Assembly (NCBI GenBank): GCA_035529595.1
Contig: DATKWK010000017.1
Span: forward strand, 29,384 to 93,383
Reading direction: 5' to 3'
Length of the DNA stretch: 64,000 nucleotides
Source: Candidatus Bathyarchaeia archaeon
GTDB lineage: Bacteria; Patescibacteriota; Microgenomatia; PFEM01; JAFGMK01
Each line of letters begins with the position of its first letter. Position 1 is the first letter of the stretch. The translations under genes were made by a program, and so were the position numbers. This document shows positions 7,177-50,387 of the stretch, piece after piece. The notes beneath the pieces were generated by a model. The model saw nothing but the letters and a program-made list of their open reading frames with translations, searched no databases and was not told the DNA's origin.

Positions 7177-7185
7177 ATTAAGGCC

Positions 7186-11629: not shown

Positions 11630-11643
11630 TCTTTTATTTCTTT

Positions 11644-11838: not shown

Positions 11839-11839
11839 A

Positions 11840-14983: not shown

Positions 14984-14989
14984 AGGAGG
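14984..14989 (+). promoter_or_regulatory. Shine-Dalgarno site (AGGAGG) for the serine recombinase gene
   Basis: A perfect AGGAGG sits 6 nt upstream of the ATG at 14996. This supports 14996 as the true start rather than the upstream ATG at 14939. Confidence 0.6.
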
Positions 14990-14995
14990 GATTTA

Positions 14996-25966: not shown

Positions 25967-26434
25967 TTATTCAATAAATATTCTATAAAAAACTTCATCC
26001 TTGTTTTGGCAAATGAATTTTACTTTCGGCATAGTGTTCTTACTGAAATGTTCACTACATTCAACCGAATTAAAACCTTTTTCGTTGCAGAAATCAATCT
26101 TGATCTTTTCAATACTTGAATCACAATTAGGTTCAACTGAATCACATTTTGATCGGATTTTGTCTTCTAAATCTATACTTGGCCCAGCTAAATACTTATC
26201 ACATAAACAACGAGCGATTTCCATTTCGGCATTGTATTTATTGAAGTCAGTTGTTATACAATGCCCGAAAGTTACATACTGACATAAGGTTCTTGAAAAT
26301 AAATATTTATGATAACTAGCAATGCAACCATGCTCTTCAATCCGGGATGAGACAGGTAATCCGTTAAAACTTGCGAAAATCAGTACGAAGATAAATAGAA
26401 TTATTGAGAGTGTAATTGTCCGTTTTTTATTCAT
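25967..26434 (-). CDS. Secreted Cys-rich hypothetical protein
   Basis: Signal-peptide-like N-terminus MNKKRTITLSIILFIFVLIFASF. 155 aa with more than 10 Cys. Confidence 0.45.
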   Translation of the reverse strand: MNKKRTITLSIILFIFVLIFASFNGLPVSSRIEEHGCIASYHKYLFSRTLCQYVTFGHCITTDFNKYNAEMEIARCLCDKYLAGPSIDLEDKIRSKCDSVEPNCDSSIEKIKIDFCNEKGFNSVECSEHFSKNTMPKVKFICQNKDEVFYRIFIE

Positions 26435-32819: not shown

Positions 32820-33254
32820 TCACTTTTTTAACTCTCTTTTGACTTCCCTTTGCAAGTCTCTTCTTCTGATCGTCTCCCTTTTATCCCATCTCTTCTTGCC
32901 TTTTGCCAAAGCGATTTCCAGCTTAATCCTTCCTTTCTTGGTGTAACAACTCACCGGTACCAGAGTTAAATTCTTAGCTTCCATTTTCTTGGCCAAACTT
33001 AAGATCTCTTTCTTATGTAACAGGAGCCGACGACTTTTTTTTGAATCGTAATCTTGATCACCGGCATATTTATAGGGCGGTATATGGGCATTAACCAGAT
33101 AAGCGCCATCGTCAGTGAGACGGACAAAACTCTCCTCCATCTTGATTTTGTTTTCTTTAACAGACTTCACTTCAGCTCCAGTCAAAACAATACCGGCTTC
33201 GATTCTTTCAAAGAGCTGGTAATCGTAGTTAGCCCGACGGTTATAGACCTTCAT
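32820..33254 (-). CDS. smpB: SsrA-binding protein SmpB
   Basis: 144 aa with the N-terminal pattern ...DYQLFERIEAGIVLTGAEVKS, typical of SmpB, and a basic C-terminal tail. Confidence 0.9.
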   Translation of the reverse strand: MKVYNRRANYDYQLFERIEAGIVLTGAEVKSVKENKIKMEESFVRLTDDGAYLVNAHIPPYKYAGDQDYDSKKSRRLLLHKKEILSLAKKMEAKNLTLVPVSCYTKKGRIKLEIALAKGKKRWDKRETIRRRDLQREVKRELKK

Positions 33255-33302
33255 GAATTTAACTTTAAGTTCTTTTCGTAAAAAACTGTGATTGCCTATT
33301 AA

Positions 33303-35264
33303 TCATTGTTTAATCTTTATCTCGTATATTTTGCTCCCCCCGAGAAGCCAAACTTTACTCATCTTTTCTGAAACAACAAAATCGTCAATGAGCATTTGCG
33401 AAGACCAAATATACTGACAGCGATATTCACCATTTTTACTCAGAACAACAATTCGCCGGTTATCCTGATCCAAAATATAAAGATTTTCTTGATCCATATC
33501 GGTATAAATGCGCCCTATTGAAGAAAAAGGTTTATCTAAACCGGCAATTCCGAAAGGATCGGTAAAACCTTGGGTGAACTTTAGGATTTTTCCTCCTTGT
33601 TTGTAGATCCAAACCGAACCGTTTATCGACATCGAAACCGAACCGGCAAGATCATCCTGGTTACCTTTTGCCCAAGATTGCTTAGCACCAAAACCGCCCT
33701 CAATAACCGGATACCGAAAAAGGCCGGCATTCTTTGAATCAAGCAGGTAAAGATTACCAAAATATGCCCTAAGATCCACTACTTCTCCCCATGTTTGGTC
33801 CCATTCGACAATAACCCGAGGTTGATCATCATTAATGACTTGTTCGATTATGCCTTTTTTTGTCAAGACAAATATTTTATCGTCCGAAACTGCCAACTGA
33901 GATGCTCCCTCGAAACTGTCTCCACCGGCCAGTATCTTACCTTTCTTATTCTCGGTTCCAATCCCATAGACTGCTTTATTCTCATCCAACACAATCAAAT
34001 TATCTCCTAATAAAGCCAATTCTTTGCCCATACCTCCTTCTTTAACTATCTCTAAGTCAAAAAAAAGAGGTAAATCTGCTAAATTATATTCTCTTAAAAG
34101 TAACTTCATTGTTTCTTCAATTTGTTTTTTTAACCCGGATATTGTTTGATTATCTTTTTCTTCCGGCTTAAAGCCGCCTGCCAATTCCCAAGCTTCGGAT
34201 AACAATTGACGGGACCGGATGGGATTAAGTTCAACGAGATTTTTTCCTTCATTGATTTTCGATTCGATCTCTGCTAAAAGCGTTCTGATTTCAGTTTTAT
34301 GCTGTAAAGTCCTTTTTTGTCTTACTCCAAAAACAATACTGGCAGCCAAAAGTAAAATTGAGATAACGCCAATGCGCAAAAAAGGCAAAGACCTCTTTTT
34401 CCGTTCCTCAGGAGAAATTCTACCCAAGTATATCTGCCCGCCTCTGATCCTTTTTGAAAATAAGGCCCGAACAGTCTTTACGGAAATTACTAATTTTGTT
34501 TTCAAATTAGCCAAAGCCGTGAGTTTTTTAGGCTTCGAAGAAGGTTTTTCGGTTTCTTTTTTATCGATAACTGGCGATTTCTGCCCAGTGAGAAAAGGTT
34601 CTTTAAAATGGTCAGAAGCTTCATTCGTTGTTAACTTAATCTGGGCGATAACACCGACCGCAGCGCTCGAATCTTTTTTACCGTAAACAATTGGCGCTAA
34701 GGATTCGGCTACCTCCTCGACACCGCTACCTGATAAGGCTGCTTTGATCACCCCTTCGGCAACGTTTAACCAAAAATCACTGCTGGCTAATAATAGGAAA
34801 TCTCCTTCTTGTAAATAACCGCTAGAAGAGTTTAGTTCTCCCGATCTTCCCCGACAAACTACGGAAAGTAAGTCACCTCGCCCTAACATTGCTTTACCTG
34901 CGCCGTAAATTACTAAATAAACCAATTCTTCCCAAAAGACGGCGACGGCTATTTCCACCGTAAAGCCATCGGTAATTTCCCTGGCTACTTTTAAAACAGA
35001 CTTTTTAAGGTGTTCTAAAATCCCGTCCTCAACTTCCCCATAATATTCCTCATGGAGACGGGCGATTATCTCTCGGCCATAGAGAACCATTTCTTTATCC
35101 CGGTTATCTCCAGTTATCTTTTTCCCCAGAGAGATAGCTGCCAATAGCTGACCGCGCTTCTTGATTTTTATTTCCTCATCGGGAAGAAAACTATGGACTT
35201 GAGACCAAGAGAAACCAGTTGAAGTTCCGACAATTTTACCGATCTCGATTTGGTATCGATTCAT
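33303..35264 (-). CDS. Hypothetical membrane-anchored protein with a C-terminal beta-propeller-like repeat region
   Basis: 653 aa with a central TM (LPFLRIGVISILLLAASIVFGV). C-terminal repeats are rich in G/D/Y (..YILDQDNRRIVV.., ..LYLLDSKNAGLFRY..) and look NHL/propeller-like. Confidence 0.45.
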   Translation of the reverse strand: MNRYQIEIGKIVGTSTGFSWSQVHSFLPDEEIKIKKRGQLLAAISLGKKITGDNRDKEMVLYGREIIARLHEEYYGEVEDGILEHLKKSVLKVAREITDGFTVEIAVAVFWEELVYLVIYGAGKAMLGRGDLLSVVCRGRSGELNSSSGYLQEGDFLLLASSDFWLNVAEGVIKAALSGSGVEEVAESLAPIVYGKKDSSAAVGVIAQIKLTTNEASDHFKEPFLTGQKSPVIDKKETEKPSSKPKKLTALANLKTKLVISVKTVRALFSKRIRGGQIYLGRISPEERKKRSLPFLRIGVISILLLAASIVFGVRQKRTLQHKTEIRTLLAEIESKINEGKNLVELNPIRSRQLLSEAWELAGGFKPEEKDNQTISGLKKQIEETMKLLLREYNLADLPLFFDLEIVKEGGMGKELALLGDNLIVLDENKAVYGIGTENKKGKILAGGDSFEGASQLAVSDDKIFVLTKKGIIEQVINDDQPRVIVEWDQTWGEVVDLRAYFGNLYLLDSKNAGLFRYPVIEGGFGAKQSWAKGNQDDLAGSVSMSINGSVWIYKQGGKILKFTQGFTDPFGIAGLDKPFSSIGRIYTDMDQENLYILDQDNRRIVVLSKNGEYRCQYIWSSQMLIDDFVVSEKMSKVWLLGGSKIYEIKIKQ

Positions 35265-35271
35265 CTTAAAG

Positions 35272-35523
35272 TTAAAGTAAAATCATAGCAAGCAAGAAAA
35301 CAATAATAGTAGCCAAAAAATACAGCCAGGCAATCGTTTTTAACGGACCTTGGGATTTGCCATTCAGAGATCGTCCCATTAAACCTACCTGCCTAACGAT
35401 CATCACGGAAAACCCAATATAAAAGAAAAGGCCAATTAAAATCGCAATTTTAACCAGATTCCAAACTTGCAGACGGAGACCGGTCAGCTGGTTAATTAAC
35501 TGGGTAAAAAAACTCTCAGGCAT
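35272..35523 (-). CDS. Small membrane protein (2 TM)
   Basis: 83 aa with two hydrophobic helices. Confidence 0.45.
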   Translation of the reverse strand: MPESFFTQLINQLTGLRLQVWNLVKIAILIGLFFYIGFSVMIVRQVGLMGRSLNGKSQGPLKTIAWLYFLATIIVFLLAMILL

Positions 35524-35528
35524 TATTT

Positions 35529-36188
35529 TTATCTCGCCCTTCCCTCTAATTTTTCAATTTCTTCTTCGCTAATTAATTCGCGCAATATTTTAGCAACCCG
35601 ACCCGGATCGGGAACATTGTAAAATTCAAAACGGGCTTGTTCGGCCGCTGTCTGAATAAAAACGTCACCAAAATTAAAAAGATTTCTTAAGAACCCGCCG
35701 ACCCTATAAGTCACATCTTGAATATCTTCGGTTTTGGCATCGGATATTTCTTTATAAATCAAACCATAAAAATCAAAATCGATAATCCGTTCATCAGTAA
35801 TAATGAAGACGTTGAAAAACCAACCCAAAAAATGCTGAAAAATAAATCCTCCTAAGAATAAGTACCAAAGTAGAATAGCCATTACCTTAAATCTTAGGGG
35901 AAGAAAACCAAAAGGCAAGAGAATAAGCAAAAATCCGGGTAAAACCGTAAGCAGTACACTAAGAGCAACCCAACCGATATTAGTTATCCAGTGATTCCGG
36001 AGAATAAGAATGATCTCTTCGTCTTTTTCCTGAGTTTCAAAACTCCAATTTTTAGGCGCACTAATAAAAGCTGAGAGAGGATGAGCGACCCTGTCTCTCT
36101 TTATCCTCTCAAGCTCACTTTCCGGTGACGGATTCGGTAAAACCTGAGCATTGCGATTATCTGGAGAAGCAATAAAAACATCAGGCAT
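35529..36188 (-). CDS. Membrane protein with a bacterial PH-like (YdbS/YdbT-type) C-terminal domain
   Basis: 219 aa with multi-TM segments followed by ...IITDERIIDFDFYGLIYKEISDAKTEDIQDV..., resembling bPH_2. Confidence 0.45.
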   Translation of the reverse strand: MPDVFIASPDNRNAQVLPNPSPESELERIKRDRVAHPLSAFISAPKNWSFETQEKDEEIILILRNHWITNIGWVALSVLLTVLPGFLLILLPFGFLPLRFKVMAILLWYLFLGGFIFQHFLGWFFNVFIITDERIIDFDFYGLIYKEISDAKTEDIQDVTYRVGGFLRNLFNFGDVFIQTAAEQARFEFYNVPDPGRVAKILRELISEEEIEKLEGRAR

Positions 36189-36229: not shown

Positions 36230-38020
36230 TCACTTTTTCTCAATATTAAACAAAGGACTACGAATAGCAATATAGCCTGGGGCGCGCAGATTAAAAGCCT
36301 GTTTATATTCCGACCCGGAAATAGTAACCGATCCTTTATTGGTATTTACAACCAGCGAATTCGTCTCGCCATTATTTCCATAATTGATCGTGACCGAAGA
36401 AACAGCCGTAAAAGCTCCACCTAGACTGCCGGCTTTATTCTTAAGCTCTTCTAGCGTATAAGGGTTTCCGTCAACTCCACCGATCGGGCATTGGTTAATC
36501 GTTACCGGCAAAATTCGCTCATCATTACCCACATCTCTTAAAACCTGCCAGGCATTTAAAATATCAGCCATCTCTTCACTCGTCAACCAAGGATGGGAAC
36601 GGTTACATTTAGCTGAATCAGCGGGATAATTTTGGGTAAACCAGCCACTGTAAAACCAAGGCGATCCGGCCTTGCTTTCCCAGCTTCTCGAAGCAAAACC
36701 TGGCCCGCCTTGGCCATCAACCGTATCCCAACTTGAGGTCGTTAAATAACCACCGGCGGTCGATGAATAAAAGGTGGTAACACCTTCGATTACTTGTCCC
36801 CGAGTCGCCTCAACTGCCTGCCGCCACTGGGCCGGCGGATTATCCGCTTTACCTTTATTAAAAACTTGACAGGATTGACTGGTGCAAATCGATCTCCCTT
36901 CAGCCTTATAACGATAAGCATAACTTCTGGCGGCAATTGCCTGGGCTTTTAAGGCCTCCGGATGCCAGCTTGAAGGCATCTCGGCAATACCGAAAAGATA
37001 ATAATTTTCAAAATCCAGGGCACCGTAGCCATCAATCAGAATCGTCCCGCCGGTATCTTTACCAACCGCTGTCTGATTATAGTAATGTCTGAGAATATCG
37101 TCAGTACTTTGACCGGCTTCGGCCCGGCCTTTAGCTCCGTATTGGCTCATGCCTTTCCGGTGTGTCCAAGCGCCGAAAGAAAAGGCGGCAAACCAATCGC
37201 CACCGCCCGGATCGCAATAGGCCGGACTTCCCGGCGGCCCGCTGCAGGGAATGTTACTGATAGGAACCTCGCCGACACTGGTGGTAAACGTTCCTGACCT
37301 GGCGGCCAATAAAGATTGCTGCTTAGCCGTCAATTGGGCAATCTTACCTTTGATGGCCCCGAGATAATTTTCGGTTTTTTCAACTTCTTCTCCCAAAAAT
37401 TGAGTCGCCTTATCAACTTCAATCCGTGTCTTGGCCAACCAAGCCTTATTGTTTTCTAACTTATCTCTATCACTATGAAGCTGTACCAGATTTTGAGAAA
37501 TCTTAATGATTGCCTCCTTGTCTTCGTTAGTGGCCGCTTGGCGATAAGAAAGCTCGCGCGTCAATTGAGAAGCGGTGGTCGACGAAAGCAGTAAAAACAG
37601 CGGAGAGTATTGGCTGCTGCGTTTGTAGTAACTACGCACCCGGAGGTTAAAAACTTCTTCCTGATGTTGTAAAACCGTTTCTCTTTCGACAATATCCGAT
37701 GCCAGCCTGTCTATCTCAGTCTCAGCTACCTGCATCATTCTTTTAAGATCCTCAAGGCGAGCTTTTAAACCGGCTAGTTTTTCTTTGTTCTTTTCATTAG
37801 CAACATCATAAAGTCCCCAAATCTCGCCGCATTCTTCTTTCTTGCGCTGGCATTCCTCAATCGTCTCACAGCTAGCATCATCGCAAGTCGCGGCAAAAAC
37901 AGAATCATTATTAAAATTACTGGTAAATAAAATACTGAAAACTGAGATAACCAAACCTAGAAAAAGCAGTATCTTTAGAGGTTTCATTCTTAAGTAAAAG
38001 TATACCATTAGGCTATTCAA
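36230..38020 (-). CDS. SpoIID/LytB-domain protein (peptidoglycan remodelling) with N-terminal signal/TM and coiled coil
   Basis: The WHPEALKAQAIAARSYA motif is characteristic of the SpoIID/LytB domain. N-terminal TM, then a long coiled coil. 596 aa. Confidence 0.7.
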   Translation of the reverse strand: MNSLMVYFYLRMKPLKILLFLGLVISVFSILFTSNFNNDSVFAATCDDASCETIEECQRKKEECGEIWGLYDVANEKNKEKLAGLKARLEDLKRMMQVAETEIDRLASDIVERETVLQHQEEVFNLRVRSYYKRSSQYSPLFLLLSSTTASQLTRELSYRQAATNEDKEAIIKISQNLVQLHSDRDKLENNKAWLAKTRIEVDKATQFLGEEVEKTENYLGAIKGKIAQLTAKQQSLLAARSGTFTTSVGEVPISNIPCSGPPGSPAYCDPGGGDWFAAFSFGAWTHRKGMSQYGAKGRAEAGQSTDDILRHYYNQTAVGKDTGGTILIDGYGALDFENYYLFGIAEMPSSWHPEALKAQAIAARSYAYRYKAEGRSICTSQSCQVFNKGKADNPPAQWRQAVEATRGQVIEGVTTFYSSTAGGYLTTSSWDTVDGQGGPGFASRSWESKAGSPWFYSGWFTQNYPADSAKCNRSHPWLTSEEMADILNAWQVLRDVGNDERILPVTINQCPIGGVDGNPYTLEELKNKAGSLGGAFTAVSSVTINYGNNGETNSLVVNTNKGSVTISGSEYKQAFNLRAPGYIAIRSPLFNIEKK

Positions 38021-38088
38021 CGCACAACTTACAAAATCTATTAATCGACTCTTGCTTAGCAGATTATCATTATGCTAGACTGGAGAAA

Positions 38089-38907
38089 ATGAAACTGACT
38101 GTTCAAATTGCACTCATAATCACCATTCTTGGCGGTCTATTTTTAACTAATCCGAAAGGAACAATCGCCGCTTCCTGTACCGCCAAACATTTTTGTTTTG
38201 GATCTTCAGTATTTGGCTACGAATACTGCTGGTGTTCAATTCAAGAGAAATGCGGGGAGGGATATAAAGAAGTAACTGATGAAGACACTTGTAATTGTAC
38301 CTGTAAATCTTTATCAGAACCGGATGAACCGGCTGACTCGGGAACCTGCAAGGTCCAGATGATAGGAGCCTGCGTCGTGATACCCCCGGGCTGTCCAAAG
38401 GGACTAACAGCAGTCTATGACGAAAGCTGTACAACTTGCGATTGCAAAAAACCCTCAGCGGGCAATTGTACCGCGGTAGGTCTTGGTCCCATCTGTTTTG
38501 TTTTAGCTCCACACGGTTGTGCTTATGACCAAGAACCAGTTACCAGCACTAACGGATTAACTTGCGATTGTACCTGTCAACCGGTGAGCGCTGAAGGCGA
38601 TAAAGGCGGTGTTTTCTGCGACGATCGGGGATACTATGTCAATACCGCTTTTGGTTGCCTGCCGACCGATGCTAAAAGATTCGCAAGCTGGATAGTCAGC
38701 CGATTGATGATTATTGGTGGCGGAGTCGCTTTCCTATTAATGCTCTACGGTGCTTTCCAAATCATCACTTCTTCAGGGCATCCTGAAGGTATCCAGGCTG
38801 GAAAAGAACTCTTCACGGCTGCCATTAGTGGTCTTCTGTTGATAATCTTTGCAATTTATATCCTGAGGTTAGTTGGGGTCCAGATTTTGGGTATTCCCGG
38901 ACTGTAA
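38089..38907 (+). CDS. Secreted Cys-rich module fused to a C-terminal VirB2/TrbC-like pilin domain
   Basis: Signal peptide MKLTVQIALIITILGGLFL. About 30 Cys are arranged in C-x-C-x-C repeats. The C-terminal ~90 aa, RLMIIGGGVAFLLMLYGAFQIITSSGHPEGIQAGKELFTAAISGLLLIIFAIYIL, show the two-helix pilin architecture shared with the 44691..47109 paralogs. Confidence 0.6.
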   Translation: MKLTVQIALIITILGGLFLTNPKGTIAASCTAKHFCFGSSVFGYEYCWCSIQEKCGEGYKEVTDEDTCNCTCKSLSEPDEPADSGTCKVQMIGACVVIPPGCPKGLTAVYDESCTTCDCKKPSAGNCTAVGLGPICFVLAPHGCAYDQEPVTSTNGLTCDCTCQPVSAEGDKGGVFCDDRGYYVNTAFGCLPTDAKRFASWIVSRLMIIGGGVAFLLMLYGAFQIITSSGHPEGIQAGKELFTAAISGLLLIIFAIYILRLVGVQILGIPGL

Positions 38908-39211
38908 AATGAAAATCGCCAGTTTGCCTACCTATAATGATATTGACGCAGGAAATTTTAAATTACAAGTAAGTTTGGGAGAACTTATCTCCACCATTAT
39001 TCCCTATACCTACGCTCTGGCTGGCTTAGGACTTTTTTTTTATTTGATTATCGGCGGCTTTAAACTTTTAACCAGTGGCGGTGACCCGAAAAAAGCGGCC
39101 GCCGCCCGACAAATACTAACCAACGCAATTTTCGGTTTCCTGATCGTAATCGCCTCTTATTGGGTCTTTCAAATTGTCGGAGTGATCTTTAAGATTGATG
39201 TCTTCTCCTAA
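38906..39211 (+). CDS. VirB2/TrbC-like pilin paralog
   Basis: The ORF-track frame trimmed to the ATG at 38906 (MKIASLPTYND...). It shows the two-helix pattern YTYALAGLGLFFYLIIGGFKLLTSGGDPKKAAAARQILTNAIFGFLIVIASYWVFQIV. Confidence 0.6.
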   Translation, partial: KMKIASLPTYNDIDAGNFKLQVSLGELISTIIPYTYALAGLGLFFYLIIGGFKLLTSGGDPKKAAAARQILTNAIFGFLIVIASYWVFQIVGVIFKIDVFS

Positions 39212-39236: not shown

Positions 39237-39986
39237 TTATTTAGTCTGGTAAACGAAAAACTTACCGCCGCCAAATCTTCTCTCGCGCTTTTGATAAGAA
39301 GCAACTGCCTTATCAAACTCAAACTGGCTAAAATCAGGCCAAAGAACCGGTGAGAAATAAAACTCGGCGTAAACGGACTGCCAGGGCAAGAATCCCGACA
39401 GGCGCATCTCACCGCCGGTTCTGATAATTAGATCGGGATCAGGCAAATCGGCCGTATCAAGATAAGAGGAAAAAAATTCTTCCGTGATCTTACTGACAGG
39501 AATCCGATCTTTAACTAATTTCTTGACTGCCCGGAGAATTTCCGGGCGGCCACCGTAATTTAACGCAAAGGTAACCGTAATTTTATCATTCCTGTGAGTC
39601 TCTTTAATTCCATTTAAAAATTTTTTGATAATATCTTTGGGGAACTTTGAAATATCACCCAAAAAATTAAGCCGGATTCCTTTTTGGTGGAGCTTTTTAA
39701 TCTTGCGGGACAGAATCTGGCGGAAGACTTGCATCAAACCTTTAATTTCCGCTTTGTCCCGTTTCCAGTTTTCCGTCGAAAAGGCCCAAAAAGTAATAAA
39801 CCTGACCCCTAACTCAACCGCCCGATCAATGATCGGTTCGATCGCTTCTTCAGCGGCCACCCGGTGGCCGTCAACCGGACCTAGGCCTCTTTTTGCCGCC
39901 CAGCGCCGGTTACCATCCATAATAATGGCGACATGAACAGGTATCTTACCCTGGTTAAGAGAAATATTTTTCATATAGATACGCAT
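39237..39986 (-). CDS. uppS: Undecaprenyl pyrophosphate synthase (cis-prenyltransferase)
   Basis: HVAIIMDGNRRWA near the N-terminus and the FTFWAFSTENWKR motif. 249 aa. Confidence 0.9.
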   Translation of the reverse strand: MRIYMKNISLNQGKIPVHVAIIMDGNRRWAAKRGLGPVDGHRVAAEEAIEPIIDRAVELGVRFITFWAFSTENWKRDKAEIKGLMQVFRQILSRKIKKLHQKGIRLNFLGDISKFPKDIIKKFLNGIKETHRNDKITVTFALNYGGRPEILRAVKKLVKDRIPVSKITEEFFSSYLDTADLPDPDLIIRTGGEMRLSGFLPWQSVYAEFYFSPVLWPDFSQFEFDKAVASYQKRERRFGGGKFFVYQTK

Positions 39987-40036
39987 TCACCTTTTAACTA
40001 TTTTACCAATTATTTTCAAAAAGACAAAGTAATTTT

Positions 40037-40828
40037 TCAGTTTATTATTGTTCCTTTTACTTCCTGGCCTAAAATCGCTCTTTTCAAGTTTCCCGGAACT
40101 TTCCCATTAACAATTAATGTTTTAATTCCCGATTTAGCTAATTTTAAAGCTGTCTCAACCTTATGCAGCATTCCACCGGTAACATCAATTCCCGCTGAGG
40201 CGCCAAAACACCGTTTTAGCCGACTAAACTGACCGGGCAGAATGGCAGAAATGGTTTGCCCTTTCCGGTTATATACCCCAGCGGTAATTCCTGCATAAAT
40301 CACCTTTTCCACCTTAAATTTATCTTTTAACCTTGTTGCTAAATGATTAAGAATCGTTTCTGTCGACAAAATACTGCAGCCCATTTCCAGATCCAAACCC
40401 ACGTCCCCATAGACAATCGGTAACATTCCAAAGTCCAATGTTCTTAAAAGTGGGCACAAAAAAGAATCTTCAATTTGTCCATTACTGGCAATCATGAAGC
40501 TTGATGGGCTAAAAGAGATAGCATTCTCGCCTTTTTGTAAGAACGCTCTGACAATAATCCGGTTAAGTCTTGCTGCTGCATCCTGGACTTCGGCAATTCC
40601 CCGAAAACTGCTTTTTCCAATCACGCCTTCGTTGGTTTTAAACTTAAGCGCGGGTACATGCGGAAAAGAACCGCCGCCATGACCGATAATCAGTAATTTT
40701 TTTGACCGTTGTTTAGTCTGACAAATCTCCCCGGCAAGACGTTTGATCACCAAACTCTTTTCGGTAAAAGGCTTACTTTTATCAGTAATCAGGCTGCCAC
40801 CAAGTTTAATCAAAATCAATTTATGCAT
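40037..40828 (-). CDS. Isopentenyl phosphate kinase (amino-acid-kinase family)
   Basis: N-terminal LILIKLGGSLITDK and the amino-acid-kinase fold pattern. It sits adjacent to the mevalonate-PP decarboxylase homolog. 263 aa. Confidence 0.7.
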   Translation of the reverse strand: MHKLILIKLGGSLITDKSKPFTEKSLVIKRLAGEICQTKQRSKKLLIIGHGGGSFPHVPALKFKTNEGVIGKSSFRGIAEVQDAAARLNRIIVRAFLQKGENAISFSPSSFMIASNGQIEDSFLCPLLRTLDFGMLPIVYGDVGLDLEMGCSILSTETILNHLATRLKDKFKVEKVIYAGITAGVYNRKGQTISAILPGQFSRLKRCFGASAGIDVTGGMLHKVETALKLAKSGIKTLIVNGKVPGNLKRAILGQEVKGTIIN

Positions 40829-40846
40829 ATCATGACATTATCGAAC

Positions 40847-41857
40847 TCAGAAAATATGATTATGAGCTAATCTCGTTCCCTTGCAAGGTCGATTAATAAT
40901 CGTAAATAATACCTGACTTAACTTTTTCAATCGTCTATTTACTTCCTGGTAATCTTTTTTCTGACAAATTACATGAACATTAGGACCGGCGTCGATCGTA
41001 AAGTAAGCAAATAGTCCTTTTTTGCGCCACTGTCGCAAGACCTGAATAATTTCTATTGTCCCCTGATTCCAGTAAAATATTGGCGGGCGCGAAGTCATGG
41101 CCACTATATGCATCGAAATTGCTTCCTCCTCAATTGCTTCTCCTGATGTCTGAAAATTCTTACTCAAAATTGCCTGTTTTACCCGTTTGATCCGGCTCGG
41201 AAGTTCCTTAAGCCGCGCCCGATAATAAGGACTGATGGCTGCCAATTGGTGGCCGGTGCGGGAAGAAAATTCCTTAATCCCGGTATCAACTACGGCAACG
41301 ATATCGACCAGATCCCACCATTTTTCATCTTTCAACTGGTAGGCATAACAGGTTTCTGAATCCTTCCCTTTCTGCCAATAAGCAAAACCGTCAATAATTG
41401 AACGGCAAGCTGATCCGGAACCGGCCAGACGGGTTAATATCGACAGTTCTTTTTTTGATAAGTTTAAACTCAAGGCAGCAGTTGCCGCCACAGTCAGAGC
41501 CGAGAAAGCCGAACCAGAAGCAGCAATTCCGGCATCGGAAGGAAAGGAATTATGAGAAACAACCTTAACGGGAAAATGGATATTAGCCATTTTTCTTATT
41601 CGGTTAACTTGGGCCAGTACCTTCTCTAAATGGCTACCTTCGGCAGTCTTTTCTTTCTGACCGAAAAACTTAATTTTAACAAGGTCTTTTTCAAAATTAG
41701 GCGAGAATTCAACCGTTGTCGTAGTCAGGCACTTATCCATCGTCATGGAAATACTGTCGTTGTTGGGTAAAACTAAGTCCTTATGCCACCAACCCCAATA
41801 TTTAATAAAGGCGATTGTCGCCGGCGAGATAACTGTCGCTTTGTATTCTTTTCCCAT
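40847..41857 (-). CDS. Diphospho-/phosphomevalonate decarboxylase (GHMP kinase family)
   Basis: N-terminal ATIAFIKYWGWWHKDLVLPNNDSISMTMD resembles the MVD family, and DAGPNVHVI lies near the C-terminus. 336 aa. Confidence 0.75.
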   Translation of the reverse strand: MGKEYKATVISPATIAFIKYWGWWHKDLVLPNNDSISMTMDKCLTTTTVEFSPNFEKDLVKIKFFGQKEKTAEGSHLEKVLAQVNRIRKMANIHFPVKVVSHNSFPSDAGIAASGSAFSALTVAATAALSLNLSKKELSILTRLAGSGSACRSIIDGFAYWQKGKDSETCYAYQLKDEKWWDLVDIVAVVDTGIKEFSSRTGHQLAAISPYYRARLKELPSRIKRVKQAILSKNFQTSGEAIEEEAISMHIVAMTSRPPIFYWNQGTIEIIQVLRQWRKKGLFAYFTIDAGPNVHVICQKKDYQEVNRRLKKLSQVLFTIINRPCKGTRLAHNHIF

Positions 41858-41875
41858 TTAACTTCAAATTAAGTT

Positions 41876-42574
41876 TTAATCCATAGCAACCCAATTCCAA
41901 GAACGAACCTTTCCTAAAAACTCCAAATCTTCCGGCCGTCCAACTTCCTCAGCCGCTGCACACATACCTTCAATTTGATGCAGAATACAAATCGCGGCCG
42001 ATTTTCCGACTAACCTGACACTACTTACTAGGCTGTCAGGATTCGCTTCTTCCCTGCCATTACGACCAGATGGATAGAGAACCGTTATCTCAACCAAACC
42101 CAGTTCATTGGCCCGGCTATCAACAATCGTCTGGTAGACGGCATAAAGCTCGAAGGCATACCGAAGCGGAGTTACTACTCTGCCTCTGGGAATAAACGGC
42201 CGCGATACTGGCACTTTCCGTCCGTTTCCCTCTTTTACTTCATCAAGAAGAAGACGGGGTAATATCCCATTCGGGCTTGATTCCAGACATCCCTGAACCT
42301 GATCACTGCCTCCTGTGATAGACAGATAATCCGAATAACCGAGAGCATGCGCCACTACTTCCCACTCTGGCGTAACTTCGAATTCCAGATCCACAGCCCT
42401 AACTGCCTCTTCGCAAGCTTCCAGTAACCCTGGCGGTGCTGTGACCGGATTCGGCTTAATAGGACGAATCCGCGATCCCGTCTGGTACCTCAGTCGCATA
42501 TCGCCATTCTCTTGATACACCACTGTCATAATCGCTGCCGCAAGGCCAGGTGGCATCGTCATGGCTTCCTTCAT
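41876..42574 (-). CDS. Hypothetical protein (GC-rich) within the isoprenoid gene cluster
   Basis: 232 aa with no recognisable motif. It lies between the decarboxylase and the ECF sigma region. Confidence 0.4.
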   Translation of the reverse strand: MKEAMTMPPGLAAAIMTVVYQENGDMRLRYQTGSRIRPIKPNPVTAPPGLLEACEEAVRAVDLEFEVTPEWEVVAHALGYSDYLSITGGSDQVQGCLESSPNGILPRLLLDEVKEGNGRKVPVSRPFIPRGRVVTPLRYAFELYAVYQTIVDSRANELGLVEITVLYPSGRNGREEANPDSLVSSVRLVGKSAAICILHQIEGMCAAAEEVGRPEDLEFLGKVRSWNWVAMD

Positions 42575-42582
42575 TATTTAAA

Positions 42583-42966
42583 TTACCCCTTAGGGAATTT
42601 ATTAACCCGTCTTAAATACTTGATTACCCAATAAAAGTAATAAATAGTTAAAACGAATAACAAAAAACCAGAAAGCAAAAATAACCTTATACCCAAAGTA
42701 GAAGCCAGCCCCATCGGCCGGACTAAAAGCCAAATTATAAGACTGAAACTGAGAAGCAAAAACCAAAGGTTAAAAGGTAATCCGAAAACTAAAAAAGCTT
42801 GGGAAAGATCTTTTCTGGAAAGAATCTTGGCAGTCGTTATTTCCGGATGAATTATCATTCCTAAAATGTTTTTCAAAAAAAAATAGGCTTCTTTAAAGCC
42901 CACTAATAAGACCAACTCTTTTAAGAAAGAAATCTCTTTTTTAACCTCCCCGGTCGATATTGACAT
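42583..42966 (-). CDS. Hypothetical membrane protein (2-3 TM)
   Basis: 127 aa with hydrophobic helices. It overlaps the upstream sigma-factor gene by 26 nt. Confidence 0.4.
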   Translation of the reverse strand: MSISTGEVKKEISFLKELVLLVGFKEAYFFLKNILGMIIHPEITTAKILSRKDLSQAFLVFGLPFNLWFLLLSFSLIIWLLVRPMGLASTLGIRLFLLSGFLLFVLTIYYFYWVIKYLRRVNKFPKG

Positions 42967-43522
42967 AGATACGAGCGAAGGCTTTCCTCGCCCGGGTCAA
43001 CCTTGATTCGATCGCTTTTTCCGTTTCTCCGAACTTTTGGGCAATTTCCCGAACAGAAAACCCCTGCATATACTTTAGTCGCAATATACGAGCATATCCT
43101 TCGGCCAAAAGCCGTAAAACTTTTAATACCTTTCTCTTTAATTCTTTCTCTTCCAGGTCTGCCTCCGGACCCAGAGCTTTACTGACAAAGATTTCCAAAG
43201 AAGGGAAAAGAGAAAAAACGACCGTCTTAATTTTCTTCTTCCGGTAAAAATCGGCGATCTCATGTTTGGCAATACCGCAAATCCACGTCAGCCAGGAAGA
43301 TCTACCGGAATAAAAAGGCAAGGCTTCAAAAGCAGAAATAAAGGTTTCCTGCAGAATCTCCTCAGCATCCTCCAAACTCTGAACCCGCGATAAAATATAG
43401 TTTAATATCCGCTTGTGATAACGACGATAAATCAATCCCTGTGCTTTCTTATTACCCCGAATTGCTTTTTCGATCATCCTCGACCGAATATTTAATATCT
43501 GAAACTTGAAGCTTTGACTCAT
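42941..43522 (-). CDS. ECF-type RNA polymerase sigma factor (sigma-70 family)
   Basis: Region 2-like ...ILNYILSRVQSLEDAEEILQETFISAF and region 4 HTH REIAQKFGETEKAIESRLTRARKAF. 193 aa. Confidence 0.7.
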   Translation of the reverse strand: MSQSFKFQILNIRSRMIEKAIRGNKKAQGLIYRRYHKRILNYILSRVQSLEDAEEILQETFISAFEALPFYSGRSSWLTWICGIAKHEIADFYRKKKIKTVVFSLFPSLEIFVSKALGPEADLEEKELKRKVLKVLRLLAEGYARILRLKYMQGFSVREIAQKFGETEKAIESRLTRARKAFARIYVNIDRGG

Positions 43523-44583
43523 TTCTCCCTGTTAATCATATAATCCGCAAGGCTCGAATAAATTTCACTCAAATTTGAATCAGAAGTTAATTCCGGAATT
43601 GCTCTTTTACCTTTAATAACTAAATCGCAGGCCAACTTTTGACAATAATCAACCGCTCCTGAATTTCTAATAATTATTCTCACTTTTTCAATTCCTTCTT
43701 CAGTCAAATTTTTGTCTCCTAAAGCTTTTTCAAGTATCTTTTTTTCATTTCCGTTTAATACTTCCAGAGCTTTGGCAACAATCAATGTTTTTTTACCTTC
43801 CCGCAGATCCGAACTAGCTGACTTGCCGGTTATTTTTTCGTCACCAAAAAGCCCAAGAAAATCATCTCTTAATTGAAAGGCAATACCAACCGGAAAACCA
43901 TATTTTTCAGCTGCTTTAATTTTTTCTTGGCTGGCGCTTGCTAAACTAATTCCAACTACAAGAGGCATAATCAAAGTATAATAAGCAGTTTTTAATTTCC
44001 GGATCTTAATTACTTCATTCCAAGCAAAACCAGGAACTAAATCATAGGTAATATCTAAAAATTCACCGAAACCTGTTTTAATCAAGTGATCCGATAAAAG
44101 AGAGATCGCTGTCATTTTGCGCTTGGCCGGAAAATCCGATTCGGAAATTAATCGGTGGCCTAGCCAACAACCAATATCACCCAATACAAAAGCCATTCCA
44201 CCTGACCACCTCTTCGGATCGCTTTTCTTAAAGCGTTCCCGATGGATCTGCTCGTACTGTTTATGAACTGTTGGCCTGCCATAACGCATCAAGTCGTTAT
44301 CAATCCAATCATCATGAATTAACAAAAAAGAGTGTATTATTTGCACGGCAACCGAAGGAGCAATAATCGCTGATCGATTTTTTCCACCGGCTGATTTGTA
44401 TCCGAGACAAACCAGAGCACCCCGAAGCATTTTTCCGCCTTTAGCAAATTTTTCATAAATTCCGACTGCCTCCGCACAAAGAGGTGACACTTTAGCGGCT
44501 TTTCTTTTTTCCTGCTGGAAAAATTTGTCCAAAAAGACGTCCGCTGCTTGCCGGTAACGAGCCAGGTAAGTTTTAATATCCAC
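43519..44583 (-). CDS. Polyprenyl diphosphate synthase (trans-isoprenyl diphosphate synthase, FPP/GGPP-type)
   Basis: The first Asp-rich motif LLIHDDWIDND and the second FQLRDDFLG are present. 354 aa. Confidence 0.85.
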   Translation of the reverse strand: MDIKTYLARYRQAADVFLDKFFQQEKRKAAKVSPLCAEAVGIYEKFAKGGKMLRGALVCLGYKSAGGKNRSAIIAPSVAVQIIHSFLLIHDDWIDNDLMRYGRPTVHKQYEQIHRERFKKSDPKRWSGGMAFVLGDIGCWLGHRLISESDFPAKRKMTAISLLSDHLIKTGFGEFLDITYDLVPGFAWNEVIKIRKLKTAYYTLIMPLVVGISLASASQEKIKAAEKYGFPVGIAFQLRDDFLGLFGDEKITGKSASSDLREGKKTLIVAKALEVLNGNEKKILEKALGDKNLTEEGIEKVRIIIRNSGAVDYCQKLACDLVIKGKRAIPELTSDSNLSEIYSSLADYMINREK

Positions 44584-44690: not shown

Positions 44691-45002
44691 ATGACAAATA
44701 TTGCCTTTGCTTTCGATATCGGAACCGCCTTCAACGCCCCGTTTAATTCAGTGGGCGAATTAATCTCGATCCTTTTACCGAATATTTATATTCTCGCCGG
44801 CGTCCTGCTTTTATTCCTCTTGATCGGGGGCGGATTTGGGGTTATATTGAGTGCAGGCAAAGGAGCCAAAGAAGGGGTTGGTCAAGGAAGCAAGGCGATT
44901 ACGACGGCCATAATCGGTTTCTTAATCATAATCGGCTCTTACTGGATTATCCAAATTATCAGCGTCGTAACCGGTCTGAATATCCTTGATCCCGGTCTAT
45001 AA
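44691..45002 (+). CDS. VirB2/TrbC-like pilin paralog 1
   Basis: 103 aa with two hydrophobic helices separated by a short polar loop: ILAGVLLLFLLIGGGFGVILSAGKGAKEGVGQGSKAITTAIIGFLIIIGSYWIIQII. Confidence 0.65.
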   Translation: MTNIAFAFDIGTAFNAPFNSVGELISILLPNIYILAGVLLLFLLIGGGFGVILSAGKGAKEGVGQGSKAITTAIIGFLIIIGSYWIIQIISVVTGLNILDPGL

Positions 45003-45015: not shown

Positions 45016-45378
45016 ATGGTCAAACACCTGTTAGCCAACGACTCAATCGGCACCGTCACTAATCCTTGGGAAACCCTAAACCCGGCATATACTGGCACCA
45101 GCGGCGAAGGATTGGTCACCTTATTAAACAACATCCTGAAATTAGCTGTTGTTGTCGCCGGCATCTTTTCATTCATTAATCTGATCGTCGCCGGCTACGG
45201 TTTTATGTCGGCCGCCGGTAACCCGGAAAAAATTACTGAAGCCTGGAGCAGAATTTGGCAATCACTGGTTGGTTTACTGATTGTCGCCAGTTCGTTTGTC
45301 CTGGCCGCCCTTTTTGGCTATCTGGTCTTTGGCGATCCGACAGCGATTATTTCACCTAAAATTTACGGACCGTCCTAA
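45016..45378 (+). CDS. VirB2/TrbC-like pilin paralog 2
   Basis: The ORF-track frame (44986..45378) trimmed to the internal ATG at 45016 (MVKHLL...). It contains LKLAVVVAGIFSFINLIVAGYGFMSAAGNPEKITEAWSRIWQSLVGLLIVASSFVLAALFGYLVF. Confidence 0.55.
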   Translation: MVKHLLANDSIGTVTNPWETLNPAYTGTSGEGLVTLLNNILKLAVVVAGIFSFINLIVAGYGFMSAAGNPEKITEAWSRIWQSLVGLLIVASSFVLAALFGYLVFGDPTAIISPKIYGPS

Positions 45379-45379: not shown

Positions 45380-45745
45380 ATGAACCAAAAATTACTGGCT
45401 ACTTCATTGGGCAGTTTTCAAGGCTTCGGTAAAATCGGTACCGATTTTCTGGCTGACCCGGTTGCTTCTTTAGAGAAAATAATCTCTTTAGTAATCGGTA
45501 TAATGACTATCGGAGCCGGTATCTATTTCATATTTCTGTTAATTATCGCCGCTTACGGATGGATGAGCGCCGGCGGCGATAAACAAAAAATGCAAAAAGC
45601 CCAGGACAGCTTTACTCAGGCTATCATTGGCTTAGTAGTGGTTGTTGCCGCTTATGCTATCGCCTCGGTTGTCGGTTTCATGCTGGGCGTTAACATCTTA
45701 AATCCGTCAGAACTGTTAGGAAATATATGGTCAACCTCAACTTAG
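45380..45745 (+). CDS. VirB2/TrbC-like pilin paralog 3
   Basis: The frame (45281..45745) trimmed to the ATG at 45380 (MNQKLLATSLGSF...). It contains IMTIGAGIYFIFLLIIAAYGWMSAGGDKQKMQKAQDSFTQAIIGLVVVVAAYAIASVV. Confidence 0.6.
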   Translation: MNQKLLATSLGSFQGFGKIGTDFLADPVASLEKIISLVIGIMTIGAGIYFIFLLIIAAYGWMSAGGDKQKMQKAQDSFTQAIIGLVVVVAAYAIASVVGFMLGVNILNPSELLGNIWSTST

Positions 45746-46098
45746 AAAAAATGTTCAAGCCGGCTTACGCGCAAATTACCAACCCGGCTATCGGTGAGGC
45801 CGGAAGCGGTGAAGGAGCTCAGATTTTAAGCCGCCTTATCTCAATAATTCTGAGTGCTCTGCTAATTATGGGTGTAATCTTCTTTATGACCAATTTCATC
45901 CTTGGGGCATACCGGTGGATAAGCGGAGGCCATGACAAAAGCTATATCCAGGAAGCAAGAGACAGGGTTTCCCATGCGATTATCGGCCTGGTGATCCTTT
46001 TCTCCGTTTTTGCTATAATCAGATTGATCGGGGATATCTTTGGTCTTAATTTGATGAAACTTTCAATTCCGACAATTTCTGATGTAGGAGGAATTTGA
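45727..46098 (+). CDS. VirB2/TrbC-like pilin paralog 4
   Basis: It contains LISIILSALLIMGVIFFMTNFILGAYRWISGGHDKSYIQEARDRVSHAIIGLVILFSVFAII. The start may instead be the ATG at 45751. Confidence 0.6.
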   Translation: MVNLNLEKMFKPAYAQITNPAIGEAGSGEGAQILSRLISIILSALLIMGVIFFMTNFILGAYRWISGGHDKSYIQEARDRVSHAIIGLVILFSVFAIIRLIGDIFGLNLMKLSIPTISDVGGI

Positions 46099-46175: not shown

Positions 46176-46598
46176 ATGAAAAAAATAGTCAAAACTACAG
46201 TCGCCTTAGGTTTAAGCGTTTTGCCTTTGATAACCTCAGTATCTATGGCTATGGCACAAGACCCTCTTACAGGACCGTTTAATCTTGCCCCTGGTGAAGG
46301 ATGGGAAAATCTATCCAAAATCAGTGTTGCCAGCATGGTAAAAGGACTGCTTTCTTTAGCGATGGTCCTGGCAGCCCTTGTCGCTTTTGGTTTCTTGCTC
46401 TATGGAGGTATTCTTTGGATTACTTCAGGCGGAGACAAAAGCAAGACGGAAACTGCCCGCAATACAATCACCGCTGCCTTAGTCGGATTGGTAATCGTAT
46501 TCGGCAGCTTTGCAATCATCCAATTAGTCCAGATAGCCTTTGGGGTCAGCATTCTTAAGCTTAATTTCGAATCGTTTAAGTTCTATTCAGGTAGTTAA
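46176..46598 (+). CDS. VirB2/TrbC-like pilin paralog 5 (with signal peptide)
   Basis: A strong RBS (AAAGGGGGTGAG) lies upstream. The signal peptide MKKIVKTTVALGLSVLPLITSVSMAMA is followed by LLSLAMVLAALVAFGFLLYGGILWITSGGDKSKTETARNTITAALVGLVIVFGSFAII. Confidence 0.65.
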   Translation: MKKIVKTTVALGLSVLPLITSVSMAMAQDPLTGPFNLAPGEGWENLSKISVASMVKGLLSLAMVLAALVAFGFLLYGGILWITSGGDKSKTETARNTITAALVGLVIVFGSFAIIQLVQIAFGVSILKLNFESFKFYSGS

Positions 46599-46725: not shown

Positions 46726-47109
46726 ATGAAACAATACAAAGGACTGATTCTAAAACTAATTGTGACTGGTTGGTGTTTGCTGACTTTCTTCCCTTTTTCT
46801 GCAGCTTTAGCTCAGGATTGGTCGACTCCGCCTGACCAGCCGGCAGATTTGAAGGATATTGAGGTCGTCTTTGCCAGAATTATCGGGGTTGCCATTCCTT
46901 TAGCCGGATTCGCCGGCCTGATTATGTTGATTATCGGCGGCTTCCAATATCTTACCGCCGGCGAAGACCCAAAGGCAGTCGAACAAGCATCCAAGTCCCT
47001 TACTTCGGTCTTTACCGGGTTAGTGCTCTTAATCAGCGCCTGGATAATTCTTAAAGCAATCCAAACAATTACCGGGATAAATGTAACCATTTTTAAGATT
47101 TCGCCCTAG
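46726..47109 (+). CDS. VirB2/TrbC-like pilin paralog 6 (with signal peptide)
   Basis: The signal peptide MKQYKGLILKLIVTGWCLLTFFPFSAALA is followed by ARIIGVAIPLAGFAGLIMLIIGGFQYLTAGEDPKAVEQASKSLTSVFTGLVLLISAWIIL. Confidence 0.65.
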   Translation: MKQYKGLILKLIVTGWCLLTFFPFSAALAQDWSTPPDQPADLKDIEVVFARIIGVAIPLAGFAGLIMLIIGGFQYLTAGEDPKAVEQASKSLTSVFTGLVLLISAWIILKAIQTITGINVTIFKISP

Positions 47110-50100: not shown

Positions 50101-50387
50101 GTATGGATTATCCCCAGGCAGATTGTCCCGATTACTGCAAATGGAATTCTGAAGCTGGACTTTGTATAGTACCGGGAACTAAAGTAGATTGTATCGCCCC
50201 CTGCAACTGCGATTATTGCAGTAAAGATAACTGCGGACCGGTATCCAAGGACGGATCGGATATCCGCGGTTGGGGAACTGCCAATAATGAAGATGCCCGT
50301 TTCTATTATCCTTATATCGGAACGATTGATATTTTCCGGCAATACTTTATGAATGCCGTTCTCCCCTCTGAGCTATCGACTTTATAA
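47157..50387 (+). CDS. Large secreted protein: N-terminal GH5-family glycoside-hydrolase-like domain plus long extension with a Cys-rich C-terminus
   Basis: Signal peptide MANKK...LLATKPCFA. The GH5 acid/base motif QILVWELANEP is present, with the candidate nucleophile FIYAGEAGYEGE. The C-terminal ~100 aa are Cys-dense (GCCNYPGDKCDG...CNCDYCSKDNCGP). 1076 aa. Confidence 0.65.
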   Translation: MANKKVKLSKKLGGLVVLWFLAGLLATKPCFAQNGSGALFGFNIHHLAKMEEQDISSILQKLSTDCSTKIVRIWGYETGIDAYVSLEKVLRNAPEDVKFIVALEDFAPIIEDPVNWYQEAARPGSNYYRHVQRMLERYGKNPQILVWELANEPSCGGYYDACLPNFLNWVEKISNLIDGYTDAYISPGLIGIPQFSEYDYERISNTGSINANSCHFYSSYSDNVVSCQWAFDHKGRVEFIYAGEAGYEGEFDCSGGGCTTKHCENCCERPILEKRAKKALADYETLSKMGFDAFLIWQFSPLGRACDNFSVFPGDPLCPGILNIAPDELTLPPNRKTEWADSVPGRNIPCRPLVVSQQQWASDTTKGANYFNPYFFNTDPLAADSLSGFPFDYSPWRPFPGDAGRAFYDTKGNIINQPHNEDDQDVCYDLEKLEKEKQITSYCNPSPQITDYIQWFPDESALEKTVRVLGYYRPFWTDSPAPEYKTTQIPFLGNSLTASREYTDNAQRMSLFVNDFLRGTVYWDQTEVEERDPRIAPESGPIRKLLPKNRQINNEYIDAYIGCRLFKDPDQCGYPLLHEDAIHDYAVLWTTGDAGIIKTGNFTDLPDHREIKKSSAVPNPWRLSAWFCGLPGIARPLKYTNLCPEDDYSGEGIYWIRSQEGYPYFPLTSREDVPAVVDVGFDGVWDPNDPRLSEIPPGKPFPVGYQMKMEDYYAVIEDGYWEDSNGDGIMEYNKWGGIYHIDKGANSPDSDPPLPMYEFHFVDLVFIPHIAEARELGEWAGLTLTPYTMMKKDLPDFWEKDRSVHQLNLVTSRTCEINDIARGGPGDALAVDWRHSFRYVDYPTDPWNIGNEGERQLRILREEKAIPDPLHDWWCKADPSEWPDRETTPIESNKGWVVTKIPYLEQVAKRLIGQAGVFKTLMPYSFNEEVEDLITEVGRGSVYPWELPGYGPAQHSYNNGLAPEGVKEHWGCCNYPGDKCDGMDYPQADCPDYCKWNSEAGLCIVPGTKVDCIAPCNCDYCSKDNCGPVSKDGSDIRGWGTANNEDARFYYPYIGTIDIFRQYFMNAVLPSELSTL

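Follow-up and report, generated by a model that had tools for sequence, protein, structure and literature searches.

The open reading frame (ORF) at 38089..38907 on the forward strand of a 64,000-nt stretch of contig DATKWK010000017.1 (assembly GCA_035529595.1), here called gene 1, encodes a 272-amino-acid (aa) protein. From its N-terminus, this protein comprises a putative Sec-type signal peptide, three Cys-rich repeats in tandem, a beta-hairpin bracketed by Cys and a pilin domain of two helices. The whole stretch is referred to as the window, and coordinates are positions within it. We propose that gene 1 is a modular VirB2-like pilin, placed as a minor or tip subunit, that presents an ectodomain for host binding, a reading to which we assign a probability of about 0.5. 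The architecture of the protein, its homology, the positional orthology and synteny of its locus and the hypervariability of its ectodomain are observed directly. The variable Cys-rich ectodomain on a known pilin type is what is new here; the pilin identity itself is already present in the NCBI naming, where an identical protein on a 385-kb contig is deposited as HUW21171.1, "pilin [Candidatus Bathyarchaeia archaeon]".

Architecture of gene 1 and its pilin domain

Gene 1 runs from an ATG to a TAA codon, and a GGAG sequence (38082-38085) lies 3 nt before its start. Its features, including those supported by AlphaFold2 (AF2) models and their predicted local distance difference test (pLDDT) scores, are the following:

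38021..38088, no strand: divergent intergenic region common to gene 1 and a SpoIID-like gene, containing the GGAG ribosome-binding site
38089..38172, forward: putative signal peptide, aa 1-28 (MK, hydrophobic core, predicted cut between TIAA and S), from a hydropathy peak, an AF2 helix at 2-20 and AxA-type sites in orthologues
38173..38343, forward: Cys-rich repeat 1, aa 29-85, 8 Cys, ending in CNCTC, from the Cys pattern and a shuffle-tested alignment
38344..38463, forward: Cys-rich repeat 2, aa 86-125, 6 Cys, ending in CTTCDC, from the Cys pattern and a shuffle-tested alignment
38464..38616, forward: Cys-rich repeat 3 and linker, aa 126-176, 6 Cys, ending in CDCTC, with two AF2 beta-hairpins (pLDDT 84.6) and a DNA echo
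38617..38670, forward: Cys-bracketed beta-hairpin, aa 177-194 (C177...T186-A-x-G189-C190), from invariant columns and AF2 strands 183-186 and 189-192
38671..38769, forward: pilin helix 1/transmembrane helix 1, aa 195-227, from AF2 (pLDDT 84-90), hydropathy and hhalign
38770..38781, forward: inter-helix loop SSGH(P), aa 228-231, with invariant G230 and P232, from alignment columns
38782..38889, forward: pilin helix 2/transmembrane helix 2, aa 232-267, from AF2, hhalign and hydropathy
38890..38907, forward: C-terminal tail LGIPGL and stop codon, with P270 nearly invariant and orthologues ending in IPGF or IPGL

The sole Pfam match of gene 1 was to PF18895 (T4SS_pilin, a family of type IV secretion system, T4SS, pilins) at residues 202-260 (E=2.7e-4, 21.4 bits). 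A hidden Markov model (HMM) was built from the seven small pilins of the window, six of which score at or above the PF18895 gathering threshold. With this HMM, gene 1 scored 45.3 bits (E=9e-14), and the best non-pilin among the 251 window ORFs reached 5.2 bits. Moreover, hhalign aligned 20 orthologous C-terminal domains (C-domains) with the seven small pilins at 98.4% probability (E=8.5e-15, 73 columns). Because both the HMM and hhalign strongly favour pilin homology, the objection that this region might align to pilins no better than random transmembrane helices does not hold, and the initial annotation was right to call it a genuine pilin domain. On these sequence comparisons, the C-terminal domain of gene 1 is truly homologous to the small PF18895 pilins of the window. 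It is not, as that annotation also stated, a copy of the domain found in the array, since gene 1 is about 54% identical to its cross-genome orthologues and at most 34% identical to the paralogs in its own genome.

AF2 modelling with a 39-sequence alignment predicted a beta-hairpin (183-192) followed by a helical hairpin (195-227/232-267) at pLDDT 84-90. These 39 sequences show no variation at C177, T186, G189, C190, G230 and P232, and hardly any at P270. The orthologues are 50-69% identical in the C-domain, many of them carrying a precomputed PF18895 match, and gene 1 bears the marks of this orthologue group, namely the Cys...TAxGC hairpin, the SSGxPxK.QAGKEL loop and the IPGF/L C-terminus. 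The Cys-bracketed hairpin is the signature of the group, and the small pilins lack it. The inter-helix loop is predicted to be cytoplasmic in the membrane and to face the lumen in a filament. No match of gene 1 to PF04956 (VirB2/TrbC) was found at E<=1; two small pilins of the window match that family weakly (E=0.012 and 0.088).

Hydropathy analysis revealed three hydrophobic segments in gene 1, corresponding to the signal peptide and to helices near residues 210 and 255. The leader reads as a signal peptidase I type, as predicted from hydropathy, the site between IAA and S and the AF2 helix. Together with the pilin homology, these properties bear out the earlier description of gene 1 as a pilin-family protein with a signal peptide and a secreted Cys-rich extension. 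Two other types of leader were considered. With K at -7 and A at -3, the sequence IAAS-C does not conform to the lipobox rule, and AxA sites occur in the orthologues; a lipoprotein was therefore rejected. Nor is there a class III prepilin leader, as the N-terminus contains no G/A-F-T-L-x-E motif.

The N-terminal module (N-module) spans 176 aa including the signal peptide and 148 aa without it, so that the roughly 180 aa first given for it fits the precursor and not the mature part. Gene 1 contains 22 Cys rather than the approximately 30 originally counted, and 20 of them lie in the mature N-module (13.5%, compared with 1.06% in the other 55 window ORFs; binomial P about 2e-16). The repeated Cys motifs noted at that time are present: CWC (47-49), CNCTC (68-72), CTTCDC (114-119) and CDCTC (159-163). 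They belong to three tandem copies of the pattern C-x5-8-C-x6-10-C-x11-14-C-x1-2-C-x-C, whose pairwise alignments score 3.3-4.6 standard deviations over composition-preserving shuffles. Repeats 1 and 3 share a 21-nt DNA echo at their ends (38287-38307 resembling 38560-38580). With a net charge of -10, the ectodomain is acidic.

Full-length AF2 modelling left the Cys-rich region unpredicted (pLDDT<50 at residues 64-172). When one repeat was modelled from a 5-sequence module alignment, two beta-hairpins were obtained at pLDDT 84.6. This modelled fold is held as tentative because the module alignment is shallow. The structure prediction suggested in the initial annotation, which had asked whether the module is EGF-like or knottin-like, yielded the two hairpins per repeat, and Foldseek with the modelled repeat retrieved no PDB counterpart. 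Likewise, the N-module matched no Pfam or NCBIfam model, including known Cys-rich families (EGF, knottin, CXCXC repeat and others). An exhaustive phmmer search of residues 28-176 against 1.84e9 protein representatives returned gene 1 itself plus two spurious matches (eukaryotic Ig repeats and BACON-like repeats).

Variable extension on a conserved pilin set

A profile scan with the C-domain identified relatives in 272 species-representative genomes, of which the best 80 were analysed; denominators are given with each count. The N-terminal extension ranges from 0 to 484 aa among 68 orthologues (median 81). Extensions of at least 60 aa occur in 45 of the 68. Their Cys content has a median of 9.3%, and in 42 of the 45 the Cys count is even (P=9e-10), as fully disulfide-bonded extracellular domains would show. 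The extensions diverge far faster than the pilin domain and are nearly species-specific. At 80-90% identity of the C-domain, extension identity is 38%, falling to 19% at 70-80%, and lengths often differ; for instance, L004 (260 aa) and L006 (189 aa), both from one sample, have C-domains that are 86% identical. BLAST clustering of 68 extensions (>=60 aa) gave 55 clusters, and the extension of gene 1 itself matched none. A similar 6-Cys module is present in a few orthologues (P0003, P0021, L045 and L067). In locus L002, gene 2 (10763-11380 of JAFGMK010000018.1, 205 aa) is likewise extended N-terminally by a Cys-rich region. This region and the first module of the gene 1 beside it are homologous (37% identity over 57 aa, E=4e-6), and modules therefore move between adjacent pilins. 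The ratio of nonsynonymous to synonymous substitution rates (dN/dS) of the extension was 0.02-0.08 in the only two pairs close enough, with dS saturated; these low values point to a constrained domain and not a loose linker. A diversity-generating retroelement was also considered and rejected, since neither a reverse transcriptase nor a pair of template and variable repeats was observed.

Gene 1 was found intact at the corresponding locus in all 80 related genomes examined, so neither the absence nor the pseudogenisation in relatives that had been named as grounds for refutation was seen. Its close relatives all belong to Microgenomatia (Pace-, Shapiro-, Woese-, Gottesman-, Blackburn-, Collier- and Roizmanbacteria), a lineage of the ultrasmall Patescibacteria. 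The gene directly 3' of gene 1 encodes a small pilin in 58 of 75 genomes, and a SpoIID-like gene is divergent to it in 60 of 69, an outcome that agrees with the co-occurrence check proposed in the initial annotation. At least five further pilins are encoded within 10 kb of gene 1 in 30 of 47 genomes, seven being the mode. In 16 of 32 genomes gene 1 heads a single contiguous array, whose counterpart in the other 16 is split. The corresponding genes of the window are as follows:

36230..38020, reverse: SpoIID/LytB-domain protein with an N-terminal transmembrane segment and a coiled coil (Pfam 69 bits, TIGR02669 99 bits)
38909..39211, forward: gene 2, small PF18895 pilin, 100 aa (Pfam 33.3 bits)
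39237..44583, reverse: block encoding uppS, an isopentenyl-phosphate kinase-like protein, mevalonate-diphosphate decarboxylase, two ORFs of unknown function, an extracytoplasmic function (ECF) sigma factor and a polyprenyl synthase
44691-45002, 45016-45378, 45380-45745, 45727-46098, 46176-46598 and 46726-47109, forward: genes 3-8, six small pilins (Pfam, HMM, positional orthology)
56701-57723, 57720-58736 and 58733-60709, forward: T4SS core, PrgI/VirB3-like, TrsD-like and VirB4-type ATPase, respectively

Gene 2 begins only 1 nt past the stop codon of gene 1, and the two genes are therefore probably translationally coupled. The isoprenoid/ECF-sigma block interrupts the pilin operon of the window after gene 2, and genes 3-8 are the remainder of one ancestral operon with genes 1 and 2. 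Six related loci share a common order, in which SmpB, a gene of about 650 aa and unknown function, DUF5657, bPH_2 and the SpoIID-like gene precede, the last of them divergently, the long pilin and the small pilin; six or seven more small pilins and then a 600-1100-aa protein follow. In L009 and L010 the array is single and contiguous with the long pilin first, and in the window, L002, L004, L006 and L008 a reverse-strand isoprenoid/ECF-sigma block is inserted after gene 2. The placement of gene 1 as first pilin, between a divergent SpoIID-like gene and a small pilin, holds for the window and for loci L001-L010.

Positional orthology was assessed in 25 genomes that carry gene 1 and exactly seven further pilins, by taking the best inter-genome match of each pilin. 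Matches at the same position made up 100% (600/600) for gene 1 and 93, 91, 100, 85, 70, 94 and 94% for positions 2-8, and a smaller genome set agreed with this result. Same-position orthologues are 43-57% identical, compared with 31-44% for the paralogs of the window genome. Therefore, as far as these sequence comparisons indicate, the eight pilins form ancient, distinct, position-specific orthologue groups across Microgenomatia and are not recent duplicates, which counts against the antigenic-variation analogy offered for pilin arrays (PMC12102498). Among the 25 genomes only position 1 shows a wide spread of lengths (120-416 aa), the medians elsewhere being 107-125 aa.

Proposed role of gene 1 and alternative explanations

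For gene 1 we infer processing, disulfide bonding, filament incorporation, tip location and host binding along the following lines. After export of the precursor by Sec and its cleavage by signal peptidase I, the mature protein of about 244 aa would be held in the membrane by the helical hairpin, with the loop cytoplasmic and both termini outside. The 148-aa N-module, with its three presumably disulfide-stabilised beta-rich repeats, would then be extracellular, a topology based on hydropathy and on structures of the VirB2 family. The hairpin of gene 1 may join a structure made of the seven small pilins and built by the VirB4-type T4SS, possibly a pilus or a cell-wall-spanning conduit, in which gene 1 would be a low-copy, tip or distal subunit presenting its binding module to the host surface. 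A low-copy, tip or distal placement is considered most likely because gene 1 alone regularly bears a bulky, nearly species-specific domain. The inter-helix loop of solved conjugative pili points into the lumen, with the termini exposed on the outer face, and a domain fused to the N-terminus of the hairpin would consequently be shown on the outside. Our reading as a modular binding pilin is favoured because there is one such gene per genome at operon position 1, coupled to gene 2, with a conserved pilin domain and a nearly species-specific head. Gene 1 would thereby be the adhesin that published surveys of Patescibacteria T4SSs lacked; no adhesin was detected in PMC12102498.

This proposal can be compared with known systems. 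The window shares with the T4SS arrays of other Patescibacteria (PF18895, e.g. SEML1_0014-0019 of Southlakia epibionticum) the same pilin family, tandem arrays and a monoderm-type T4SS (PrgI/VirB3, TrsD, VirB4). All six T4SS pilins of S. epibionticum are essential, and one of them, SEML1_0015 (185 aa, PF18895 at 115-180; supplement of PMC10633639), is likewise extended N-terminally before the pilin domain, an extension unmentioned in the main text of that paper. The published arrays are described as small, sequence-divergent pilins, whereas the set in the window comprises eight position-specific orthologue groups, and neither the long Cys-rich, nearly species-specific ectodomain of gene 1 nor its Cys-bracketed hairpin appears in those descriptions. 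In the literature searched, T4SS pilins of Patescibacteria are nowhere described as Cys-rich or N-extended, and neither the Cys-bracketed hairpin nor positional orthology nor the SpoIID linkage is mentioned.

Like gene 1, the VirB2/TraA/TrbC pilins of diderm T4SSs (PF04956) combine a signal peptide with a hydrophobic hairpin in which a short loop joins the two helices, but unlike gene 1 the known mature pilins are of about 70 aa and carry no extra domain. The Mbov_0395 family (NF045849) of integrative and conjugative elements in Mycoplasma is a small two-helix pilin-like protein of a monoderm T4SS, also lacking an ectodomain; gene 2 reached E=3e-4 against it (20.4 bits, below the 40-bit cut-off), and gene 1 gave no match. 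The same design logic, a bulky module on a small pilin, is found by analogy only in the modular type IV pilins of Streptococcus sanguinis, PilB with a vWA module and PilC with a lectin module. These are minor, tip-located, adhesive pilins that bind host ligands and are encoded among several other pilins. However, type IV pilins constitute an unrelated filament superfamily with a class III signal peptide, a prepilin peptidase and a single N-terminal helix, in all of which gene 1 differs, and the S. sanguinis modules lie C-terminal to the pilin helix, whereas that of gene 1 is N-terminal to the helical hairpin. With the VirB5 pilus-tip proteins of diderm T4SSs gene 1 shares solely the proposed role of a minor tip component mediating contact, as VirB5 is not a pilin-domain protein and has no similarity to it in sequence or fold. 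No VirB5-like gene was recognised in the window, and a review names Patescibacteria as the sole exception to the absence of VirB2 and VirB5 from Gram-positive T4SSs.

Several observations weigh against the proposed role. The PF18895 score of gene 1 is below the gathering score of 26.6. Foldseek against the PDB was not significant, the best pilin being the Aeropyrum pernix conjugation pilus 8dfu (E=2.2, TM(target) 0.53) among many generic helical hairpins, and a C-domain profile search of PDB sequences returned chance matches only. In the N-module no binding fold was recognised by Pfam, phmmer or Foldseek, and the two pairs in which selection could be tested, with dS saturated, gave no signal of positive selection. 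Fifteen of the 68 orthologues have almost no extension (<30 aa), and the ectodomain is therefore dispensable for the core role of gene 1, an accessory. Gene 1 is encoded alongside the VirB4-type ATPase and other T4SS parts, but the linkage is loose, the core lying about 18 kb downstream on the same strand and not adjacent. To our knowledge, no host is known for Microgenomatia. Finally, no pilus has been observed for any Patescibacteria T4SS.

The last of these points also speaks for a surface-display anchor, in which the hairpin serves as a membrane anchor only and the ectodomain acts at the cell surface and never in a filament. The ectodomain might, for example, be an envelope adhesin, associate with the wall or work together with the SpoIID-like enzyme. 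Under the predicted topology the ectodomain is outside regardless, and gene 1 tightly adjoins the envelope genes SpoIID-like, bPH_2 and DUF5657 and not VirB4. Nevertheless, we consider an anchor rather unlikely: the C-domain is conserved like the best small pilins (54% versus 43-57%) and keeps the loop and helix signatures of the family, conservation that a simple anchor would not need, and gene 1 heads the pilin operon in probable translational coupling to gene 2.

The modular binding pilin that we favour would be a rare subunit; a stoichiometric one, whose ectodomains coat the entire filament, is improbable. Gene 1 is first in its operon, its C-domain is highly conserved, and the outward-pointing N-terminus of a VirB2-type pilin makes a coat conceivable for small extensions. 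We made a steric estimate from H-pilus parameters (C5 symmetry, 12 A rise, 90 A diameter), which gave an outer surface of about 700-950 A2 per subunit. The 16-kDa head of gene 1 just fits this area, but the 300-480-aa heads of some orthologues do not. With extensions of up to 484 aa, the large ones could not occupy every lattice position by this estimate, and gene 1 would therefore be low-copy or terminal if the orthologues share one role. Furthermore, a coat of gene 1 would leave the seven other conserved pilins without a role.

It is very doubtful that the Cys-rich region is a pro-domain, cleaved as a long leader (as in VirB2/TraA) or released as a secreted disulfide-rich peptide to leave an ordinary small pilin. 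VirB2-family pilins are heavily processed, and the conserved Cys hairpin just before helix 1 could mark a boundary; however, no conserved cleavage motif separates the extension from the hairpin, a separate Sec signal peptide is already there, and the purifying selection and even Cys counts fit stable folded domains. The idea that the ORF is spurious or decaying, and Cys-rich by accident of composition, is refuted by the identical protein called on the 385-kb contig, the intact orthologues at the matching locus in 80/80 genomes and the Cys enrichment, with nothing found in its favour.

Going further than the modular binding pilin, one may tentatively picture gene 1 as the host-recognition subunit of a heteromeric filament or conduit of eight ancient, non-redundant VirB2-like pilins. 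It would then be the first natural modular T4SS pilin, its species-specific, disulfide-rich head setting the host range of the episymbiont and replacing the VirB5/PrgB adhesins that Patescibacteria lack, but this larger picture is doubtful.

Surrounding genes and significance

The divergent arrangement of gene 1 and the SpoIID-like gene across 38021..38088 was correctly described in the initial annotation: the spacer is 68 nt with a TTG start at 38020, or 80 nt with the Joint Genome Institute (JGI) gene call, which starts at 38008. A strict sigma-70 scan of the 68-nt spacer detected no consensus promoter. The SpoIID-like gene may stand in functionally for the VirB1 lytic transglycosylase, which in published surveys is poorly linked to virB4 in most Patescibacteria classes. 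Upstream of it, the reverse-strand block 32820-36188 is conserved in all relatives and holds bPH_2 (35529-36188), DUF5657 (about 35272-35523), a 653-aa protein of unknown function with two transmembrane segments (33303-35264) and SmpB (32820-33254). Within the block that interrupts the pilin operon, the ECF sigma factor (42941-43522) overlaps a 127-aa protein with three transmembrane segments (42583-42966), possibly an anti-sigma factor.

Right after the last pilin, 47157-50387 (forward) encodes a 1076-aa protein with a signal peptide, weak matches to GH42/GH5 TIM barrels and a Cys cluster at aa 960-1020. All the loci examined encode a large protein (593-1104 aa) next after the array, and it may be a secreted hydrolase or effector. 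Also on the forward strand, a 579-aa protein with seven transmembrane segments (50440-52179) gave a weak 13.6-bit match to the small-pilin HMM. Within the T4SS core, the TrsD-like protein of 338 aa (57720-58736, forward) resembles the N-terminal part of VirB4, and a 904-aa protein with six transmembrane segments encoded after VirB4 (60760-63474, forward) may be a divergent VirB6. Elsewhere in the window, a defence/mobile island (109-16531) contains a GmrSD-like endonuclease, a PHP plus SMC-like ATPase, HsdS, HsdM and HsdR of a type I restriction-modification system, and a large serine recombinase (14939-16531). Two other small Cys-rich ORFs with signal-peptide-like N-termini lie at 25967-26434 (reverse, 155 aa, 10 Cys) and 12930-13577 (forward, 215 aa, 9 Cys), with no Pfam match where tested. 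The NCBI label Candidatus Bathyarchaeia archaeon is probably a taxonomy error, as the window encodes bacterial RpoD, DnaG, SmpB and SpoIID and matches Microgenomatia; many related third-party annotation (TPA) bins labelled uncultured Gammaproteobacteria are probably taxonomy errors too.

The T4SS and its pilin array are essential to the epibiotic life of the sole genetically tractable Patescibacterium. Gene 1 provides a concrete and testable candidate for host recognition through the T4SS, where published surveys found no adhesin, and the sequence of its head could mark differences in host range among uncultured Microgenomatia. The eight orthologue groups of the array point to a multi-subunit assembly and not to antigenic variation, which changes how such arrays should be modelled.

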